From IMG/VR virus record IMGVR_UViG_2061766007_001614: DNA of 64,000 bases; one strand, given 5' to 3'. The notes below the pieces were generated by a model. It was not told the origin of the DNA. It was given only the letters and a program-made list of their open reading frames with translations, and made no database searches. Numbering within the stretch: the first letter of the stretch is position 1; each line of letters starts with the position of its first letter. Shown in pieces: positions 2,705-61,246 of this stretch. Origin of the DNA: an uncultured virus (IMG/VR IMGVR_UViG_2061766007_001614) (taxonomy: Duplodnaviria; Heunggongvirae; Uroviricota; Caudoviricetes). The position numbers and the translations under genes were made by a program.

Positions 2705-2932
2705 TTACCACCTATNNNNNNNNNNATCATCGTACTCCACCTTGGTTTCTTCTCTAAGCCTAAACCACTCAATCATCTCAGGATTATCTACCTCAACTAC
2801 TTTTCCACAACTAAAGCAGTGATACCATCCGTCCTCGTACTTCCAGATAGGTTCTTCACATTCCGGGCAGCTTGGTCTTTTATAACACTTATCCTCGTGA
2901 AAATCGTAATCTGTTCCCCATATTGCTTTCAT
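2705..2932 (-). CDS. small zinc-ribbon protein
   Basis: CPEC...CFSC; start overlaps upstream stop; gap at 3' end. Confidence 0.55.
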   Translation of the reverse strand: MKAIWGTDYDFHEDKCYKRPSCPECEEPIWKYEDGWYHCFSCGKVVEVDNPEMIEWFRLREETKVEYDDXXXXRW

Positions 2933-3207
2933 CTTCTCCTTCTCCTCCGTAACTTCTTTGGGAATCTCATGTATAAATCATTCCCAGTCAATAACCATAC
3001 TCTAAATCCCTCTGGGTTTCTTAACGTTGCAGTAAACTCCATAGGCTCTGTTGTCCTTATGTACCGTTTGGTGTTGTCAATGCTATCAGGTGTTAAATCA
3101 ACCTCGTCTATATGACTTATAAGATTGATGTTTTTATATTCACCGTTCTCATCAAGAACAGCCATTCTTATACTGCTCAAATCCATCTTAATCGGCATCC
3201 CAATCAA
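2929..3207 (-). CDS. hypothetical protein
   Basis: 92-aa ORF with GGAG SD, coupled to the next gene. Confidence 0.55.
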   Translation of the reverse strand: MIGMPIKMDLSSIRMAVLDENGEYKNINLISHIDEVDLTPDSIDNTKRYIRTTEPMEFTATLRNPEGFRVWLLTGNDLYMRFPKKLRRRRRR

Positions 3208-3802
3208 TCTCCATCTTTACGTATTTAGGACAGTTCTTTACGCGAAACAGTACCGTGTCACATTCAAGTCCTACAGTACATTCATTCTCCTCTGCCGTGA
3301 CAAAGCCAGGATAATCAGCAACATGTCTTTTATTCCCACACGTTGNNNNNNNNNNNNNNTTCTTCAAAAACTCTTTTCATCCGAGCATTATCTTCTGCCC
3401 TTTCTTCTGGAGTTGGACAAATCATTCTTCTAAGTCTATTCATATCCCCGCTCCTATAGCCAATACAAAACCAACTATCAGCAGCAATCCACAAATCTTC
3501 TCAGCTATCCTAAGTGTTACCTCGTCCATATTTTGCCCCTATACCCTCTTCTGAACATCTCGTACATCTCATTTGGATCCTCGCCATCTGGGACATACAC
3601 TTCATACGTGGTAAAGTGAGTCCCACACTCAGGGCATTTCTTCCTTCTACGTACACGATTAGGGGGAGTATCTCTTGTATCTATATTGATTGTCTTTGGT
3701 GCTCCNNNNNNNNNNNNNNNNNNNNNNNNNNNNNATCAACCCCCATAAGCAACGCCGCTAAAGATATGGCGATGAATACTAATACTTTGAATTCAAACTC
3801 TT

Positions 3803-8221: not shown

Positions 8222-9193
8222 CTAATTTATTCCATCTCGTTTTCTTGTCTTTAGATAGTCTTCGAACGTCTCAGTAGCCCAGAATATAAATCGGTTATTA
8301 ACCCATCTTTGAAGATACCGAAGATCGCACCCTTTAGGAAGATGTTCTTTGTCATATAACATCACATACGGCGCAAAACCATGGTCTCGGAGCCAGTATA
8401 TCCTTTCCAGGTCTTCTGTTCTGACTACACGTTCTCTGTCTCCGCAAAGAACATATACTTGGAGATCCTTATTACGTACCTTACTGTGCTTACGAAACTC
8501 CTTGAACTTAGGTGTGATTATTTCGTAATCCTCGTATCGATCCCATGCAAAATGTATTGCGTCAAGCTTTATCTGGGAAAGCATTATTGCTTTTTCTTCT
8601 GTCATCATCCTAATGTCGAGCCCTTGATTAAAATTTACGTGTGTTTTGCTATCGATTAACTGCTGAAGTAAGCCTTTCCAGTCAGGACAGGCTAAAATAT
8701 TAGGATCATATAATACAATGTGCTTTTGACCTCTCCAAAACTCTGAGAGATCTGCAACCTTGTGTGAACACTGAGTTTCTTTTTTTGAGACTATACAGAA
8801 GTTGCAATTGCGAGGACATCCTCTTGTTAAGAATCCATAGGCTGTGTCTTTTGCTAACTCAGGATAGATACTGTAATCGGGATACATATGCTCTACCTCT
8901 TCAGGCAATGAAAGATCCTTTGACTTGTCGTATACTTCCTTGCCATCAACTACGGATATTGCATAGCCAGTTCCACCTTTTATTACCTTATCAGCATTGA
9001 TGTAGTATGGATAATCCGGTGAAAAACTAAACACTTTGCTGACATATACAATATCCATATGTCCACTAAACAAAGGCTGATACCATTCTACAGAGTCGCC
9101 TTGCTGTTTATGCCATTGAGACAACTTCATTAATGGCAATGACGGATAGCCTGAGCAGTCTACATCTATTAACCCTATTCTCACTTGCAGCAA
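8222..9193 (-). CDS. radical SAM protein
   Basis: RGCPRNCNFC CxxxCxxC motif; N-terminal IGLIDVD...PSLPLMKLS and FNQGLDIR typical of phage radical SAM proteins. Confidence 0.85.
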   Translation of the reverse strand: MLQVRIGLIDVDCSGYPSLPLMKLSQWHKQQGDSVEWYQPLFSGHMDIVYVSKVFSFSPDYPYYINADKVIKGGTGYAISVVDGKEVYDKSKDLSLPEEVEHMYPDYSIYPELAKDTAYGFLTRGCPRNCNFCIVSKKETQCSHKVADLSEFWRGQKHIVLYDPNILACPDWKGLLQQLIDSKTHVNFNQGLDIRMMTEEKAIMLSQIKLDAIHFAWDRYEDYEIITPKFKEFRKHSKVRNKDLQVYVLCGDRERVVRTEDLERIYWLRDHGFAPYVMLYDKEHLPKGCDLRYLQRWVNNRFIFWATETFEDYLKTRKRDGIN

Positions 9194-30697: not shown

Positions 30698-31648
30698 TTA
30701 GTCTGTAACTTCAATCTCATATCTCATAAGGGCGTCTCGACACTCTTTTGAAATCATTCCATTTGCGTATTCNNNNNNNNNNNNNNNNNNNNNTACTGCC
30801 TCTTTATATTTCTTATATGCCAGGAATGCTTCATACTCTGTGTCAAAAGTTCCTATATAAATATGTTTATTTGCATTGCTGCATTCAGCAGAATATTTAT
30901 TAGTTGATTTCCTATAACGAACACCAGGCAAATATTGCCCTCTCTTATTGTTTCTAACAATATTATTTATTTCATTGGGAACAAGACAGCATTTATCAGG
31001 AGCGTACTCTCTATTGCCTTTGTAAAGTATATCTTTGTCTACATGGAAATGCGGATTACTCCTCCACGCCTCGTAGTTTTCTTGTTGTGTTATCCAGTTA
31101 TAAAAATTTGGATAGTATAAAAACTCTTCGCAAACAGTACAGTCGTCGTAGTATGCATAATTCTTTCTACGATTAGCGGAATAGCATCTATCGATAATGC
31201 CGTGCCATGTTATATATTCTTTCTCTTTATACATATCATGGCCACTTCCCTTTACTCCTATACCACTTATAGTTTGAGTAAAGGGATTACGAGTTTTCCC
31301 TTGTTTGAAATGTTCATATGAAGTTTTAATCGTTTGCGCTGGGTCGTTATCAAATTGTACGATTACATTTTCTGCAGCATGGTATTCGATTATCTTCATG
31401 AGACACCCCTGCTTATTGATATTTTCCTCTCCCAATCTTTCTTCACGAAGAGATTTTTCAAATGGAACGTTTGGGTTTCTGAATAATCCTTTGTTGAAGT
31501 GTGCCCACCTTGTTTTTACCAAAGTGCCGTCATCAAAACGTACTAGTATATCATTGCTTTTTACATAATCAACAATNNNNNNNNNNNNNNNNNNNNNNNN
31601 NNNNNNNNNNNNNNNNNNNNCAATGCGTTCATCTCTTTTGTTTTCCAT
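30698..31648 (-). CDS. HNH-type homing endonuclease with N-terminal repeats and AP2-like domain
   Basis: W.GIIDRCY...VCEEF..Y.NF..W...VDKDIL.KGNREY.P..CCLVP; YIGTFDTEYEAF.AY. Confidence 0.8.
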   Translation of the reverse strand: MENKRDERIXXXXXXXXXXXXXXXIVDYVKSNDILVRFDDGTLVKTRWAHFNKGLFRNPNVPFEKSLREERLGEENINKQGCLMKIIEYHAAENVIVQFDNDPAQTIKTSYEHFKQGKTRNPFTQTISGIGVKGSGHDMYKEKEYITWHGIIDRCYSANRRKNYAYYDDCTVCEEFLYYPNFYNWITQQENYEAWRSNPHFHVDKDILYKGNREYAPDKCCLVPNEINNIVRNNKRGQYLPGVRYRKSTNKYSAECSNANKHIYIGTFDTEYEAFLAYKKYKEAVXXXXXXXEYANGMISKECRDALMRYEIEVTD

Positions 31649-42058: not shown

Positions 42059-42300
42059 CNNNNNNNNNNNNNNNNNNNNNNCTAATGCACACGGACTTGT
42101 GACCGTTCACCCGTCAGGGTGAGTGCATTAAGGCAGGATCCACCCGCCCCACTCTGCAGTTATTCCTCAAGTATTGACCCTAGAGCCTTAGAAAATGCTT
42201 CATCGTCCCACTCAATATTCCCAGCATCAACCGGGATTTCATGGGCAAACATCTCGTCAATGTACTCAAAGAGGTCGTTCAGGTTCATCTCATCCATAAG

Positions 42301-45576: not shown

Positions 45577-47265
45577 ATGTCACAGAGTGGGTTGAGAATT
45601 TGTAATATCCAAGGGGCAAGTATCTATGAGTATATGAACGGCTTCAGGGGTCACATGGATATTACCAAGGCAATGCTCGTCAACAGTTTGTTTCTGGATT
45701 ATCTACTGGATAATGATCTGCTAGTGGTCCAGAAAGACTTTACACGGAGCATTATATGCCTGGAATTCGGATATGGGACAAAAGATTTTAATAGTNNNNN
45801 NNNNNNNNNNNNNNNNNNNNNNNNNNNCATTTAAAAAAAGAAAATATTTCCGAAGAAACAAAAAATCGTTTGGAAAAACTTTTAGAGAATATAGAAACGA
45901 ATAAAGATAAGTGTGTAAAGATCTCAAAAGAAGCCCTGAGGGAGAAATATTATACAGAGGGTGTGGAGATAACCTATCGGACGTATGATAAGAAAGGCCG
46001 TGAGGTGGTCAGTCGCAGGAATACTATCCGGTATAAGATGCTGTACCGTACCCCGGGTAAAGCCAAGAAAGGTACGTGCATGTTTATCGATGAGCGTATC
46101 TATGATCAGGTGCATGAGTTCCTGTATATGGGAATTAACCCACCTGCAGAGAAAGCTCCCATTGTTGAGCTCGGGGCCTACTCTTCTCTCATAACCAGTT
46201 CTATCGAGGGGCGTGTACAAATAAAGCCAAATGAGATCCTGTGCCTGAAGGATGTTGACTCTATCTTTAGAACAAAAGTTATGTCTGTTGAGACTGACGA
46301 GAATAAACACTGCTTCATTGCTGAGAAAGAAAATTATGAAGTGGTGAATACTCTCTTTGATGGCCAGGGGCTTATTGATGAAAGCATATTCCCTGAATGG
46401 GGGGATGGATATATCCTTCTTAGACATCATATGACTAAGCTTGCTGCATTTAAGACAAGGATACAGAAGTTCTTTAAAGACCAGTATGGCGATAAGTATG
46501 AGACTGCAACAGTAAAGGATATGTGGGACCGTGATGTCAGGATAAAAGACGTAAAACTGATAACTACTAATAATGCCTTCAAATGGTTAAAATTTCAGGT
46601 GCCGTTTGATTACTGGGCTAGCTGGATTCGGAAGAACGGGTGTCAGTTTGGGATAGTAAAGACTGCTCATGAGTCAAAGCTTGGTGACGTACAGAGGATG
46701 AGCTATCAGATGATGAACTCACTTGATATAGAATCCATGCCGGCTGTCTGCAGCAAAACTGTAGAATTTATAAATAAACTAAAAAACGATAACGAAACTT
46801 TTTTAGAATATTTAGAAAAAAATAAAAATTTTTCAAATGACTTTGAAGTTTTGATCGCGCTATGTAAGCATAATCAAGATTTCGTAAATAGTAGATATTT
46901 CAGGGAAAGGCGCCAAGCTATTGTGAACTCCTACGTCCTTAATTTTAAGAATGGACGTAGCATTCAGGATGCTGATAACCTGACAATTGTCGGTTCACCG
47001 TATGCAATGCTGCTACATGCCATTGGGCGCGATCCGTTAAAGGATCCCACCTTTGAACATGAAAACGGTTGCATACAATGTTATACAAAAAGATTTAAAG
47101 ACGGGGAATATCTTGCATCGTTTAGATCTCCGCAAAATGCAAGAAACAACATTGGTTATTTACATAATCATAGTTCTCCGGAAATGGAACGGTACTTCGA
47201 TTTAGGCGAATTGTGTATAGCTATCAATATGATAGAAACAGATTTCCAGAATCGTCACAACGGGT
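45577..47265 (+). CDS. YonO-like single-chain (two-barrel) RNA polymerase, exon 1 (frame break at gap 45796-45827)
   Basis: YRTPGKAKKG.C.F, LFDGQGLID, LLRHH..K, MSYQM.NSL, FRSP, ends ...FQNRHNG. Confidence 0.85.
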
Positions 47266-48140
47266 TAACATACTGGCCCAGCGTACAGGAATGTGCGTAA
47301 CAAATACCTTGTGAAAATCAGAAAGCTAAATGTGTGTATGAGTGAAATAGAAATTTGGAAAGAAATAGAAGGATATGATGGTGCTTACATGATAAGCAAT
47401 CTAGGCAGGATAAAGTCAATGCCTAGACTATCAAAGCAAAACCATTTACTTCCAGAAAAGCTTCTTAGCATCAGCCATAATAATAGTGGTTATTGCGACG
47501 TGTCATTATATTACGATGGCCATAGGTATCACGAAAAAATTCATCGACTTGTGGCTAAAGCATTTGTTGATAATCCAAAAGGATTAAATGAAGTGGACCA
47601 TATAGACACAAACAAAGACAATAATCGTTATGATAATCTTAGGTGGACTACACACTCAGAAAACCATCTAAATCCGCTGACTGTTAAAAAGACAAGGCAA
47701 TCTCATTTAGGTAAAAAGTGGTCCGCCGCTCAGAGAGAAAAACAGCAAAAGAAAATTGAGGCATTCCGCAACGGAGAGCTAGTTGCTTGCTTCGAGAGCT
47801 ATAGCGATTTGGATCATAACAGCAAAGAAGTTCTGGGAACGCAGTTATGGAATGTATATGCTCGAGAAGTCATCAAAGGAAAGCGGGAGTCATACAAAGG
47901 ATTCACATTTAAAGAAGCATAAATTATTCATACACACACATGCTAACTAGATTACGAAGTTCGCGAATTCTATTTAGTGTAGCGAATGAGTTTAGAGACT
48001 AGGAAATTGACTAAGAAAAGAATATATTTCCCACGAGTGCAAGGATCCCCACCGTATATTACGAGGGATAAGACATAGTCCGACACTCCAGTGAAAGCTG
48101 GAGCAGCCTTGGATAAAGAGCCAAGGACAAAACAAAAAAG
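47266..48140 (+). mobile_element. group I intron (IA2-like) with HNH ORF
   Basis: 5' splice after U in P1 GGGU/UA..UGGCCC; P3 CCTTG/CAAGG; P7 GACTA/TAGTC with AAGACATAGTCC; P8 and P9 hairpins; terminal G at 48140; splicing restores the frame. Confidence 0.88.
47338..47922 (+). CDS. intron-encoded NUMOD4/HNH homing endonuclease
   Basis: EIWKEIEGY.G.Y.ISNLGRIKS; IHRLVA.AF..NP....EVDHID.NK.NN...NLRW.T. Confidence 0.9.
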   Translation: MSEIEIWKEIEGYDGAYMISNLGRIKSMPRLSKQNHLLPEKLLSISHNNSGYCDVSLYYDGHRYHEKIHRLVAKAFVDNPKGLNEVDHIDTNKDNNRYDNLRWTTHSENHLNPLTVKKTRQSHLGKKWSAAQREKQQKKIEAFRNGELVACFESYSDLDHNSKEVLGTQLWNVYAREVIKGKRESYKGFTFKEA

Positions 48141-49138
48141 CAGATCAGGACAGTGATACTATATACACAACTAACCAAAAAGATATCGTAAGACATGCGG
48201 AATATTGTTACAGGAACTACCCCACTATTGTTAATAATATCCCTAAAGATTCAAACACGTACAGATATGACATGAAAGATTTTGCAAAGGTGGACAATGG
48301 GCTTGCGGCTTCTCAACTCGCAATTGGGGAGTCATCTAACTTAGCGCAGATAGCTTTGACATATACGTACAACTTCGAGGATAGAAAGTACTCCGACTAT
48401 GTATGTATACTTGCGACTATCGCGCAGGTCGCTGTGGACAGCTCCAAGAGGGCTTATGATATCGACATTGGCGAAGAAATCAGGCGCATCAAAAAGGATA
48501 TGGATCTTGAAAATAACGGTCTACCTTTCTTCTGGTTGGTAACCAAAAGGGACAAGCGTAAAGTCCGCAACGAAGATCAGCGCAAGGCCCGGGACAAAAA
48601 TAATAAAGATAGGATACGAAAAAAAATCGAACCTTCGTTGGACTGTCCTATGAACTATTTATACCGGCTTAGATTTGGACGAACTCAGTATGAGAAGGCA
48701 ACAATTGACATGAGTCATTTTTGGATTAAACATGATATACATAATGGGCGCCGTAATTCAAAAGCGGTTGAAGAACTTATCCAGAACTATTCAATAAAGC
48801 TGTATGAGTACAATTCAAGTGAATACAAAGATGACTCAGACTATCTTTTGCTGAAAGATGACTTTGATAACTTAATTAGTGATATAAAGAAGATATACAT
48901 ATCAAGGAACTACCTGGGAATGATGTCTTGGCTGATTAACAGGGCGTTCTGTATAGGCGATGGAGTAAAGAAAAACAAAAGCCAGATGGATTCAAAATTA
49001 AGCAAGAATAGGTCAATCCTTTTAAAAACACTATATGTTGTATCACCAGAAGTATTCTTACAATGTTTTGTGGAAAAAAGGTGTACACTTGAGCACAATG
49101 AAATCGCTGAAAGTCGCATTATGACTGGTATAAATTAA
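48141..49138 (+). CDS. YonO-like RNA polymerase, exon 2
   Basis: Begins (T)CA GAT CAG GAC AGT GAT = S-D-Q-D-S-D, in frame with ORF 48272-49138; IGESSNLAQ, AQVAVDSSK. Confidence 0.85.
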
Positions 49139-50053: not shown

Positions 50054-51340
50054 ATGCCAAGACCAAAAGGAAATAAAAACACTCTCCCGCCTATTAAAAA
50101 GGTCCGGGAAGAAAATGAAAAACTGCGAGCGGCTATGGAGAATGGATGCCGCTGTGCAAAGTGTGGCCAGATAAAAGATAAAGATAAATGGTTTTATTGG
50201 GATGCCGATCCCATGCTTGGTGGTGATTCGTTCTCGCGTATATGTAAAGACTGTGCAAAGGGAATTGCCCTTGGACGGGATGAAGAAGGACACGAGATGG
50301 AGAACCCCACAAAGGAAACTGCCCAGAAAGCTCTTATGTATCTGAACAGACCTTTCCTTGATACTATATGGAATGCGTCCGTTCAGGAGTCGCAGAATAT
50401 GATGACCGGAAAGAATAAGTGGAATATCTGGTCTGCATATGTGAAAAACATGCAGATGCAGCAATATGCCGGTATGACTTATCTGGACTCTGACCACTTA
50501 AAGAAAAGTACCAAGGTAGAAAAATCCGGTAAACGGACAAGCGTTAATAAAATGCTTGAAGACCATGCCGGTATGGATACCTATGATTCATTTGCTAAGA
50601 ATAAAGCTGATGTTGTAAGGCTGCTTGACTATGATCCATTTGAAGCGGAGCTCATAGCTGACCAGCCTTTTTTATATGCGCAGCTTTTGATGCTTATGGA
50701 TTCAAACCAGGATCAGGAAATGGATATGATAAGAACGTCCTCTGCAATTTCAATTGTAAGAGGATTTCTTCAGGAAAATAAACTGAATGACGCTATATCA
50801 AAACTCATGGGAGATATTGAACATGTCCAAAGGAATTCCGCTACTATCAAGTCTCTTCAGGATGCTAAACAGAAGGTTGTTGCGCAGATAACAACACTTG
50901 CTGCAGAAAGCTGCCTGTCACTAAAGAACAGTAAAACAGCTACCAGAGGGGACAATACCTGGACTGGAAGAATTAAGAAGATAAGAGACCTGAACCTTTA
51001 TGAGACCAACGGTTTTGATATTGCAACCTGTAAAGGCATGCAACAGGTTCAGGAGATATCCGATGCTTCCATAATGAAACAGCTTGCTCTTGATGATAGT
51101 GACTGGTCAGATATGGTCGCCGAACAGCGGAACCTGATAGCAGAACTTCAGAAAGAGCGAGACCAGTACAAGGAAATAAATCGTCTTTTATTGAAGGAAA
51201 ACATAGGGCTTAAAGACACATTGGAAGAAAAAGGATATGACGTAAAAGGAAACACCAAAAATCTTAAAGAGATCTACTCTGTATTTGCGGGACAGGAGGA
51301 AGACATCGATGAAGAACCAGAAACTGATGATGCCGACTGA
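50054..51340 (+). CDS. zinc-finger protein upstream of terminase (possible small terminase/packaging protein)
   Basis: CRCAKC...FY...ICKDC, LNRPF...W; position as in the SPbeta-like head module. Confidence 0.55.
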   Translation: MPRPKGNKNTLPPIKKVREENEKLRAAMENGCRCAKCGQIKDKDKWFYWDADPMLGGDSFSRICKDCAKGIALGRDEEGHEMENPTKETAQKALMYLNRPFLDTIWNASVQESQNMMTGKNKWNIWSAYVKNMQMQQYAGMTYLDSDHLKKSTKVEKSGKRTSVNKMLEDHAGMDTYDSFAKNKADVVRLLDYDPFEAELIADQPFLYAQLLMLMDSNQDQEMDMIRTSSAISIVRGFLQENKLNDAISKLMGDIEHVQRNSATIKSLQDAKQKVVAQITTLAAESCLSLKNSKTATRGDNTWTGRIKKIRDLNLYETNGFDIATCKGMQQVQEISDASIMKQLALDDSDWSDMVAEQRNLIAELQKERDQYKEINRLLLKENIGLKDTLEEKGYDVKGNTKNLKEIYSVFAGQEEDIDEEPETDDAD

Positions 51341-53361
51341 CATGAACCTCCCATACGATAAGGATTTCTTTAAAGATTATGGAGTATACGTTAAACCGAT
51401 AAATTACGCATTGTCCCAAAGGAAGGTAGAATCCTTACTTGAGATAGCCAAGATGCAGAAGTACTTCCAATGCAATCCAGTCCAATGGATAGATATCATG
51501 TACAATATTGAGCTTATAGACTCGCAGGCTCTTGTTGTACAGAAATCGTGGACATGTCCTCATTTCCTGGCAGTGTGCAGTAGGGGATGGGGAAAGTCTA
51601 CAGTTATAGATCTGGAGCTCATGGCTAAAGATTCTCTGTTTTGTAATTACTGGGCATATATTGCTTCTGGTACCGGCTCACAGGCCGAGAATACTTTTAT
51701 TACATTAGAAAAACTGGCAAACGATAATATAGATACTTTTGAAGGCTCGACGGGAAAAATCTTCAAAGACGAAGTTATAGTAAAGGCGGCCTCGGGAGAT
51801 GGCTTTTGTCACACTCCGGGTAGCTTTAACTACCAGCTTTATAACGGATCACAAACGGCAACATTAAATTCGAACATAGATTCGAAGCGTGGTTTCAGGG
51901 GCTCCGTTATATTTGATGAGNNNNNNNNNNNNNNNNNNNNNNNNNNNNATGAAGGTGTATGGAGCATTTGCCATTGTTGAAAAAGGTTTTAAGACCGGTA
52001 AAGTAGACGGTCATTCCATAGACCCTATACGACAGAGAACTTTTGCAACTAATATCCCAAATCAGTTGTTTTATATTTCTTCTGCATCTTCTACAGACAC
52101 TCCGTTTTATGCTTTATATAAAGAATTTTCAAAGCGAATGATAATGGGTGACCCTGACTATTATGTTGTCCATATTGATTGTGAGCAGGCATTTAAACCT
52201 ACTCTCCGTGGAGAACTGATAGCTCCCCTCCTCTCTCGTTCGACTGTTAAGTCTGAGATGAGAACCAATCCTGAAAAGGCAAGGCGCGAGTATTATTGCC
52301 AGTTCACAACAGATGCGGGTAACGATGCCATTGTTAAACGAGGAGTTATTGTAAGGAATGAAGAAATACGTCCGCCTGTCCTCAGTGGTGATGGCAAGCA
52401 CAAATATATTATTGCTTATGATCCTGCTCGTCAGAGGGATAACTCTTTCATTCTTGTAGGAGAAGTGTATGACGAAAAGAACCCTGACGGTTCAAAAGAT
52501 ACCAAGTGCCGATTGGTAAATGGTATCAATCTGTTGGATGTAGGAAAGAAAATTAAAAGTCCTATGCAGACTCCCGACCAGGTGAAGTATTTAAAACAAG
52601 TCATATTGGACTATAATGCCGGTGCGGATAATTACGACAATATAATCGGAGTATATATTGATGCCGGAGCCGGTGGTGGTGGAGTATCCATTGCGGATTA
52701 CCTCATGGCTGACTGGGAGGATGACAAAGGGAATCTTCATCCGGGACTCATTGATAAAGAATTCTCTGAGGACTACGTGAGTAAATTCCCTAATGCTATA
52801 AATAAATTGCATCTTATGGCTCCATCTAAGTGGAAGTCTCAGATGTTTGAAGAACTGATTGAGATGGTCAACCAAGACAAAATAAAATTCACTGCGTCCT
52901 ACGACCATAAAGGATATATCACAACTTTTGATATAGATGAGGATCTTCTAAAAAAGGAAAAGAAACGCATCAGTGATAAGTTGAAAGCTGAACAGGGACT
53001 GGAGGGTGACGAACTTACCAAGGCAGTAAAAGAAGAACTGACAAAAGCGGAAACTATCAAGACAAAGATGGTGAAGCTTAGCTGGTTTGAAGAGCTTGCC
53101 CTTAGTAATATTGATGCCCTAAAAGAGGAGGCAGTGAACATCGCGAGGAAGAAGAATACTTCCGGAAGAGATTCTTTCGATCTCATCCCGGAAAAGGCTC
53201 ATACTCTTCACGATGATAGAATGTACTGCCTGAGTCTTCTCAGCCATTCGCTTTATGGACTACGTAGAAAAGAATTAGTTGGAAGACCAAAACAATCAAA
53301 TGATGAATTACTAAGGAAGCTTGCATCAAGTATGCGGGCTTCTTCTATTATTCAAAGATAA
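51309..53361 (+). CDS. terminase large subunit (split by gap)
   Basis: SRGWGKST Walker A, IFDE Walker B, YISSAS coupling motif, AYDPAR RNase H fold, HDDR. Confidence 0.9.
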
Positions 53362-60243: not shown

Positions 60244-60417
60244 GGTAATAAACAATATGTTCTTGATGTGGCCACTTCCACCTGGTCTCCTAAGACTTGG
60301 AACGGATTGACTGACATTTATGGGCCGAGTATTTGGACGGATGGAGATAACATTTATTATTCGAATAGTAATAAACAATATGTTCTTGATGTGGCCACTT
60401 CCACCTGGTCTCCTAAG
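60244..60417 (+). repeat. extra unit of the fibre WSPKTWNGLT repeat, flanked by N-gaps
   Basis: Translates GNKQYVLDVATSTWSPKTWNGLTDIYGPSIWTDGDNIYYSNSNKQYVLDVATSTWSPK, matching 57790-58104. Confidence 0.85.
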
Positions 60418-60457
60418 NNNNNNNNNNTATGTTAAAATATTTATCCCGGAGGTTCTT

Positions 60458-61246
60458 ATGAGCAGAAAAAACGATATTTGTGGTATTTATAAAATCATCA
60501 ACAATGTAAATGGCAAACTTTACATTGGTCAATCAAAAAGGATATACACACGTTGGACTGAACATAAGAAAGAATTACGACGTGGAAAACATGGTAACCC
60601 GTATCTTCAAAAAGCATGGGATAAATATGGGGAAGCCGCTTTTTCTCACGAACTAATTGAAGAGTGCAGTGAAGACATTCTAGATGAGAGGGAGTGTTAT
60701 TATATTAAGTTGTTCAATACTATGAATGAATTAAATGGGTATAACCTTACATCGGGAGGCGGGCGTAAAAAACAATACTCCGCTTCAACAAGAGCGAAAT
60801 TAAAAATCAATGGAACTGGTTCCAATAACCCTAATAGCAAAAAAGTAATCTCGCTTGAAGATGGTGTTATTCACGAATCTATAAATCTCGCTGCTAAGAC
60901 GCATAATACGCATGCTGCTATGATATATAGATGTTGTACCCTGAAGAGGTATACTGCGGGTGGATATCATTGGATGTATTATGACCAGTATCTATTGTCT
61001 TCACCTCAACAGATTGAAGAACTTCTATCCAAGCGAGACAATGGGAAGACGCGAAGCGTAATATACCTGAACACAATGAAGGTCTACTCTTCAATTAAAG
61101 AAGCACATGAAGACACTGGGGCAAACGCTAATAGCATTAACCAGTGTTGTATACATGGAAGGCCTAATGCCGGTTATACAGATGACGGCAAACCAAGAAT
61201 TTTCATGTATTACAAAGAATATTTAAGCAAGAATGAGGCGGGATGA
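60458..61246 (+). CDS. GIY-YIG homing endonuclease with NUMOD repeats
   Basis: CGIYKIIN.VNGKLYIGQS..I..RW..H...L...H.N.YLQ.AW.KYG; GYNL..GG. Confidence 0.92.
   Translation: MSRKNDICGIYKIINNVNGKLYIGQSKRIYTRWTEHKKELRRGKHGNPYLQKAWDKYGEAAFSHELIEECSEDILDERECYYIKLFNTMNELNGYNLTSGGGRKKQYSASTRAKLKINGTGSNNPNSKKVISLEDGVIHESINLAAKTHNTHAAMIYRCCTLKRYTAGGYHWMYYDQYLLSSPQQIEELLSKRDNGKTRSVIYLNTMKVYSSIKEAHEDTGANANSINQCCIHGRPNAGYTDDGKPRIFMYYKEYLSKNEAG

Follow-up and report, generated by a model that had tools for sequence, protein, structure and literature searches.

A predicted group I intron, carrying a gene for an HNH endonuclease, at the catalytic loop of a YonO-type RNA polymerase gene in a gut phage

A polymerase gene divided by an insert with a group I fold

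The DNA analysed here (the window) is a stretch of 64,000 nucleotides (nt) from an uncultured virus of the Caudoviricetes (IMG/VR record IMGVR_UViG_2061766007_001614), in which a gene for a YonO-like RNA polymerase is divided into two exons by an insert with the architecture of a group I intron. As listed in Table 1, the insert itself holds a gene for an HNH endonuclease. A preliminary description of this DNA, made from its letters alone, had placed 875 nt between the end of exon 1 at 47265 and the start of exon 2 at 48141, and these boundaries were confirmed from the sequence. When the insert was removed, the two exons joined in frame into 891 amino acids (aa; 559 + 1 + 331 codons), with the translation ETDFQNRHNG-S-DQDSDTIY over the junction. 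The insertion point falls two bases ahead of the codon for the first catalytic aspartate and thereby, as had been proposed, at the metal-binding loop. The preliminary description had mentioned neither the endonuclease open reading frame (ORF) nor an apparent change of frame across a run of 32 N in exon 1.

Table 1. Features of the polymerase locus, in window coordinates (bp, base pairs)
Feature	Position	Strand	Remarks
Exon 1 of YonO-like RNA polymerase	45577..47265	+	559 codons + 1 nt, N gap counted as 21 nt; starts with ATG 45577, last letters AAC GGG T
Assembly gap	45796..45827	.	32 N; apparent exon 1 frame change across gap
P1	47262-67/47274-79	+	splice pair U47265.G47276
Group I intron (predicted)	47266..48140	+	875 nt; subgroup IA architecture; terminal G48140
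P2, GGAA loop	47281..47300	+	placed in window; contains exon 1 in-frame stop 47298-47300
P3	47307-13/48038-44	+	placed in window
5' strands of P3, P4, P5 and 13-bp P5 extension	47307..47343	+	P3-P5 covary in relatives
NUMOD4 + HNH gene	47338..47922	+	194 aa; 209 aa from GTG 47293; Pfam PF07463 and PF13392 above cut-off
3' strands of P5 extension, P5, P4, P6; P6a; J6/7	47926..47994	+	L6a strand of P11 at 47968-47971
P7	47995-48001/48076-81	+	G47997-C48080 guanosine-binding pair by analogy
P7, P7.1, P3 3' strand, P8, J8/7	47995..48081	+	P11 strand 48014-48017 in P7.1
P9 (GAAA loop), P9.1, linker to terminal G	48086..48140	+	placed in window
Exon 2	48141..49138	+	331 codons; first letters CA GAT CAG GAC AGT GAT; D-Q-D-S-D triad at 48143-48157, near start

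The insertion was then compared with related loci, which are denoted below by L numbers where they must be told apart. Intron-free relatives were contiguous at HNG/SDQDSD in 12 of 14 viral loci, and an insert at the same base was found in the remaining two (L007 and L010). Both exons are open and were 79-84% identical to the intronless homologs (84% for the exon 1 part and 79% for exon 2 against the closest of them; 79% for exon 2 residues 1-320 against L001/L002). Moreover, a contig from a second study (run X3, 47120-48301) covers both intron junctions with 3 differences, and the insertion is therefore not an assembly error. Many N gaps are present in the window. At the one in exon 1, a public contig covering the entire stretch, from a run that may be the source sample itself, has 11 letters fewer (21 nt), which restores the frame; a programmed frameshift at 45796-45827 was accordingly rejected in favour of a gap artefact.

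All of the elements that had been named for the insert (P1 with a U-G splice pair, P3, P7, P8, P9 and a terminal G) were located. Covariation was examined in 11 ORF-less relatives of 256-343 nt, where 90% of cells were paired and 52 of 73 pairs changed on both sides; none of 500 shuffles scored as high, and slid controls were paired at 32-43%. The U.G splice pair was found in 11/11 of these relatives, with an adjoining P1 pair that changes on both sides, and P7 shows two compensatory changes in L007. A P10 of 3 bp is possible between 47273-47275 and 48141-48143, and of 200 shuffles of the 3' half of the intron, 196 folded less well than the half itself (z -2.3). A pairing of the 5' strand of P3 with the motif CACGAG, considered as an alternative, was rejected because no covariation was seen by eye. 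The terminal G was present in 40 of 41 listed relatives and window copies. The exception, L097 (3008-4431), carries an intron at the same site that ends in A instead of G, which may be a natural variant or a sequence error; L291 and L295 have similarly unclear 3' ends.

The check by covariance model that had been suggested gave a mixed outcome, in that Rfam RF00028 matched, with a score of 26.2 bits (E 2.6e-4) that lies under its gathering score of 50. At the gathering score, Rfam gave no intron match in the window, and a standard cmscan would therefore miss the intron. The low score is explained by the ORF, which splits the ribozyme core. A model of the family, whose training set includes the window, found one intron in the window.

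The label IA2-like, which had also been proposed, stood only in part. An extra stem, P7.1, does lie between P7 and the 3' strand of P3, and 5 of its 5 pairs change on both sides. IA2 introns have two stems, P7.1 and P7.2, and the P11 pseudoknot marks IA1. Here, the single P7.1 is followed by the conserved unpaired CACGAG, with no P7.2, and its loop pairs with L6a to form P11. At least 4 Watson-Crick pairs of P11 were found in 23 of 29 dereplicated introns, compared with 40% of mismatched combinations; none of 2000 permutations reached this level (one mis-anchored row was kept), and 4 of 4 P11 columns change on both sides, with 74% paired. In the window, P11 in the family register has 4 bp (47968-71 with 48014-17), and a 5-bp maximum lies in a neighbouring register. 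The IA2 label was rejected on the grounds of the single P7.1 stem and the covarying P11, and the architecture is, by the general definitions of the subgroups, closer to IA1.

The endonuclease gene was placed in the P5 loop, closed by the 13-bp P5 extension. Its product matched PDB entry 1U3E ('HNH homing endonuclease'), which we take to be I-HmuI from SPO1, over nearly the whole length (E 3.8e-14) with the same NUMOD4 + HNH architecture, and the DH..N..N residues are present. The two differ in setting: the window gene is housed in the P5 loop of an RNA polymerase intron of IA1-like build, and its target is putative. In relatives, the P5 loop holds an HNH gene, a GIY-YIG gene or no ORF. The nearest endonuclease is that of L010 (55%), of which the ribozyme is only 42-69% alike; ORF and ribozyme thus travel separately. 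The upstream GTG at 47293 overlaps the exon 1 stop and is not conserved in L007 or L010. Judged from this arrangement, translation of the endonuclease from unspliced RNA by coupling is possible.

The host polymerase and its predicted dependence on splicing

Exon 1 matched phrog_8308 of PHROGs (E 3.9e-73), which was also matched by the intron-free L001 (E 1.4e-91) and by a protein of SPbetaL8 (1199 bits); a Pfam search of the polymerase gave no match. The SPbetaL8 protein, of 835 aa, is annotated as hypothetical only, and its size, motif and position suggest that it is YonO. The window DQDSD aligns with DNDGD (in FDNDGD) of this protein and with DFDGD of Enterocloster phage PMBT24. Sequence searches of the PDB, whether made with exon 1 or with the profile of the family, gave no significant match; only a comparison of folds succeeded. 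This comparison was carried out on an AlphaFold model of the intron-free L001, which is 79-84% identical to the window, and not on the window protein itself. The model was built from 113 sequences and had a predicted local distance difference test score (pLDDT) of 88, compared with 47 for an earlier, unusable model from 10 sequences. Its best fold matches were QDE-1 and RDR2 (E about 1e-12), followed by the Thermus phage gp64/gp62 and crAss phi14:2 polymerases. Eight residues have been listed as invariant in two-barrel polymerases (PMC2919709). Mapped by alignment and motif in L001 numbering, the corresponding D252, R273, K278, R507, P509, D555, D557 and D559 are invariant in 113 aligned relatives and present in the window, where equivalents of the first five lie in exon 1. 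On this model and these matches, the assignment of the host gene to the YonO-type single-chain two-barrel RNA polymerases holds.

An unspliced reading of exon 1 stops in frame at 47298-47300, ahead of the aspartate triad, and the first methionine of exon 2, at 48272, lies past it. Without splicing, therefore, no product would hold the triad, and from this anatomy it follows that the making of the polymerase should depend on splicing; the preliminary description had proposed such a dependence for late transcription. A further polymerase copy free of the intron could lie outside the window. Gene callers give two ORFs, as the preliminary description had also foreseen, and neither contains the triad. 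Downstream of the polymerase lie genes for a Clp-type protease, terminase and portal; upstream, on the opposite strand, are those for a helicase and a replisome organiser. In SPbeta, YonO is required for late genes (PMC5467207), and DNA-dependent transcription of late genes by the window enzyme is putative, being suggested by this analogy and the genomic context. Scans for promoters and terminators stayed at chance level. Polymerase relatives in genome collections were mostly found on Clostridia contigs, and the best metagenome sources carrying the sequence were cattle and sheep gut. None of the listed runs carrying it was an RNA dataset, and in 4 of the 22 listed runs no contig joint was seen that skips exactly the intron.

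Distribution of the intron and competing explanations

An intron occupies the site of the window intron (site A) in 18 viral loci, out of the best 80 of 222, and in 3 of 49 spanning genome loci; these counts include non-independent loci. When intron presence (29 rows) was mapped on a tree of 91 hand-selected exon 1 proteins (L153 was left out for a frameshift), it needed 22 changes, compared with a mean of about 25 for shuffled labels, and thus clustered no more than in shuffles. L040, with the intron, and L038, without it, were identical over the exon 1 protein stretch used. Introns at site A ranged from 275 to 1424 nt and held an HNH ORF, a GIY-YIG ORF or none. This scattered presence has the pattern of homing and loss, not that of a fixed regulatory part. 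The pattern of the 5' junction was also matched outside the polymerase gene in 8 of 40 cases, six of them chance-like. The other two (L102 and L110, around 3007-3250) mark the start, in another gene, of a different insert that looks like an intron, lacks an ORF and shares the 5' junction, and that matches only weakly.

We consider it very probable that the insert in the YonO-type gene of this gut phage is a group I intron, with an HNH gene lodged in the P5 loop, that is predicted to splice itself and is likely a selfish homing element. This explanation is based on the observed boundaries, the empty alleles, the covarying helices, the endonuclease family, the polymerase fold and the patchy presence; the rest is inferred. 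Attacked by guanosine triphosphate at the U.G pair and ligated at the terminal G, the RNA would give the 891-aa enzyme, while unspliced RNA would give a 570-aa product without the triad. I-HmuI nicks intron-free alleles near its insertion site; the window endonuclease would likewise nick intron-free alleles near the site, and repair would copy the intron in. The polymerase would, by analogy with SPbeta, transcribe the downstream terminase-portal-head operon. The site may persist because imprecise loss beside the invariant aspartates would be lethal.

A number of observations weigh against this explanation. No splicing product was seen, so that splicing is a prediction. The covariation structure was drawn from the same 11 sequences on which it was scored, and related sequences can beat shuffles. 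The window core departs from the family in a bulged A in P4, a G.A third pair of P6 and AAGACA in J8/7, and the window intron sits on a long branch (0.41) with at most 67% identity to any relative; it may therefore be less active. The endonuclease ATG at 47338 is buried in the 13-bp stem without a clear ribosome-binding site, which makes its expression putative. Kinship with the SPbetaL8 protein is remote at the profile level (probability 94.9%, 24% identity), and this stand-in for YonO bears its hypothetical annotation only. Finally, of 505 metagenome loci, the best 80 all lacked an interruption at site A; they were ranked by score, which favours intron-free genes.

The many N gaps of the window and the few non-consensus core positions might suggest a dead pseudogene, with an insert that no longer splices or an assembly that is wrong. 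Both exons are nevertheless open and 79-85% identical to intact relatives, all helices can form, and the second study's contig over both junctions differs at only 3 positions, which leaves this reading with hardly any weight. Scarcely better placed is the view that the intron is a regulatory switch, fixed as a part of the polymerase gene. It draws on the fact that the enzyme cannot be made without splicing, on the position of the gene just upstream of terminase and portal genes, and on the need for YonO in late gene expression of SPbeta (PMC5467207). However, the intron is absent from the closest relatives (L193, L194, L201 and L001), its presence is scattered over the host tree with freely varying length and ORF content, and no riboswitch or other Rfam family reached threshold near it. 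It has also to be considered that the HNH nuclease is a weapon, which would harm the polymerase gene of co-infecting intron-free relatives to the benefit of the carrier, as has been demonstrated for gp210 of PhiPA3. The same arrangement of an HNH intron in an RNA polymerase gene in PhiPA3 (PMC11620839), the presence of the HNH catalytic residues and the existence of close intron-free relatives speak for such a role; the many site A introns without an ORF speak against it, and we regard it as rather unlikely. It would be compatible with the selfish homing proposed above, and does not exclude it.

Relatives of the intron occupy several sites in the polymerase gene. In L001 numbering these are codons 328, 554 (site A), 556, 558 and 648/649 (site B), three of the five at DxDxD codons, with codons 556 and 558 between aspartates. 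At all five, the exon ends in a G(G/A)NU that matches the guide, mostly followed by CA and at codon 556 by UY. Site B holds an intron in 7 of the 78 viral loci that span it. In L118, identical ORF-less introns of 276 nt lie at A and B (2262-2537 and 2822-3097, 284 nt apart), an identity that assembly of one metagenomic contig could have produced by homogenising the copies; the A and B introns are 97% identical in L125 and 96% in L124, where the A intron has an ORF and the B intron has none. This intron lineage is at both sites in L118, L124 and L125, and at A with B empty in L111 and L121. A single clade of site B introns was rejected (12 of 41 rows, approximately unbiased test p-AU 2.4e-7). 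Other cross-site neighbours (L093/L030 and L036/L097) come from related host genes. Relatives of the window intron likely pass ribozyme sequence between sites of the polymerase gene. Matches to the core motif numbered 116, spread over 114 viral loci, of which 45 matches lie in the polymerase family and 71 elsewhere or unplaced; scanned downstream exons (n=13) were assigned to tape-measure (5), capsid (3), terminase (1) and dUTPase (1) genes, with 3 lacking an assignment. Separately, L169 (11316-12520) holds a related intron (49.6 bits) with a long ORF that splits a terminase large subunit gene at Walker A, by eye. In L284, L303, L307, L338, L341, L369 and others, the core lies in one gene whose downstream exon starts GETNRNID and which weakly matches phrog_9288.

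Two accounts of these sites were weighed. The family may jump to new, non-homologous sites through its RNA guide by reverse splicing, caught here in the act. This reading is based on the five G(G/A)NU sites together with the identical L118 copies, on the repeated origin of second-site introns from those at the first site within one and the same phage lineage, and on the same core in tape-measure, capsid, terminase and dUTPase genes. If true, it would provide a natural test system for ectopic transposition via reverse splicing, a route without direct evidence according to a 2014 review; we hold it only tentatively, as an account with perhaps one chance in a few. We lean slightly towards ectopic recombination at the DNA level between resident introns (concerted evolution) as the source of near-identical ribozymes at different sites. 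The ribozymes are mosaic: the window and L007 are 86% identical over P1-P2 and 91% from P9 to the end, with 29-67% between, and the site B intron of L093 and the site A intron of L030 are 93-96% identical at both ends and 64-65% in P6a-P7.1. Site B endonucleases of L058, L081 and L093 resemble one another (34-50%) and not that of L030, and phage Twort has three similar introns in one gene (PMC3073962). Against recombination or conversion stand its inability to found a site, the guide-matching G(G/A)NU at the end of all five exons, and the lineage that is at A with B empty in L111 and L121 and at both sites in L118, L124 and L125. Recombination between resident introns explains much of the multi-site pattern and argues against simple hopping.

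Known systems and other features of the window

The preliminary description had doubted that this was a well-described intron target. Phage RNA polymerase genes are in fact known targets, and what remains of the claim is that no paper on introns in yonO was found in a search that did not extend to supplements; the intron tables of PMC12350094 or PMC11878797, or subscription papers, could list some. Look-ups also gave no published counterpart of the two-site copies or of P11. A close case is the gp210 intron of PhiPA3 (Birkholz 2024, PMC11620839), which interrupts the gene for an RNA polymerase beta subunit and is a putative group I intron encoding an HNH protein similar to I-HmuI. There, too, an HNH intron lies beside conserved aspartates of a phage RNA polymerase; however, that enzyme is a multi-subunit polymerase of a nucleus-forming phage and the site follows two beta-subunit aspartates, whereas the window gene encodes a single-chain YonO-type enzyme interrupted at its DxDxD loop. 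Self-splicing introns in such genes are also known from AR9/PBS1, where the beta' gene of the virion RNA polymerase holds introns of groups I and II (PMC12350094), and from 201phi2 (gp273/274; PMC2919709); these polymerases belong to another class, and in AR9/PBS1 the endonuclease family differs as well. Disruptions of the DxDxD motif have been described in print for crAss-like phages, and insertion at active sites is a textbook expectation (PMC12908238).

SPbeta YonO (Forrest 2017, PMC5467207) shares with the window enzyme a single chain of about 100 kDa, the aspartate triad and a position upstream of packaging and structural genes. The two differ in sequence (about 20-24% identity) and in the triad, which is DQDSD in the window; the word intron is absent from that paper, as it is from a preprint on SPbeta relatives. 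The Twort gene (PMC3073962) and the introns at two sites of ribosomal DNA (PMC3984707) also show related ribozymes at several sites of one gene; unlike these, five sites across a phage clade are seen here, with empty and filled alleles and one identical ORF-less pair. The single insertion in the window is an expected kind of event, and the main interest lies in the multi-site pattern. YonO-type polymerases of gut phages are under-counted, as callers split the gene and the Rfam threshold misses the intron. As a hot spot in which unoccupied alleles stand next to introns with and without an endonuclease gene, and at several sites, the gene makes the origin of new group I sites, by reverse splicing or by DNA recombination, testable.

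Further features were noted elsewhere in the window. A Twister-P5 ribozyme (42091-42158, minus strand) scored 42.5 bits, above the Rfam gathering score; it borders an N gap in the arm that is transcribed the other way. A GIY-YIG-type homing endonuclease ORF (60320-61246, plus strand) lies among head genes, with its 5' part between N gaps with repeated sequence; neither Rfam nor the family model gave an intron signal near it. A further HNH endonuclease ORF occupies 30698-31648 on the minus strand. The terminase large subunit gene (51285-53361, plus strand) is broken into two ORFs only at a gap of 28 N (51921-51948), and the break is probably another gap artefact. Glycosyltransferase-like and radical SAM genes (138-2093 and 8222-9193, both on the minus strand) were found in the phage arm.

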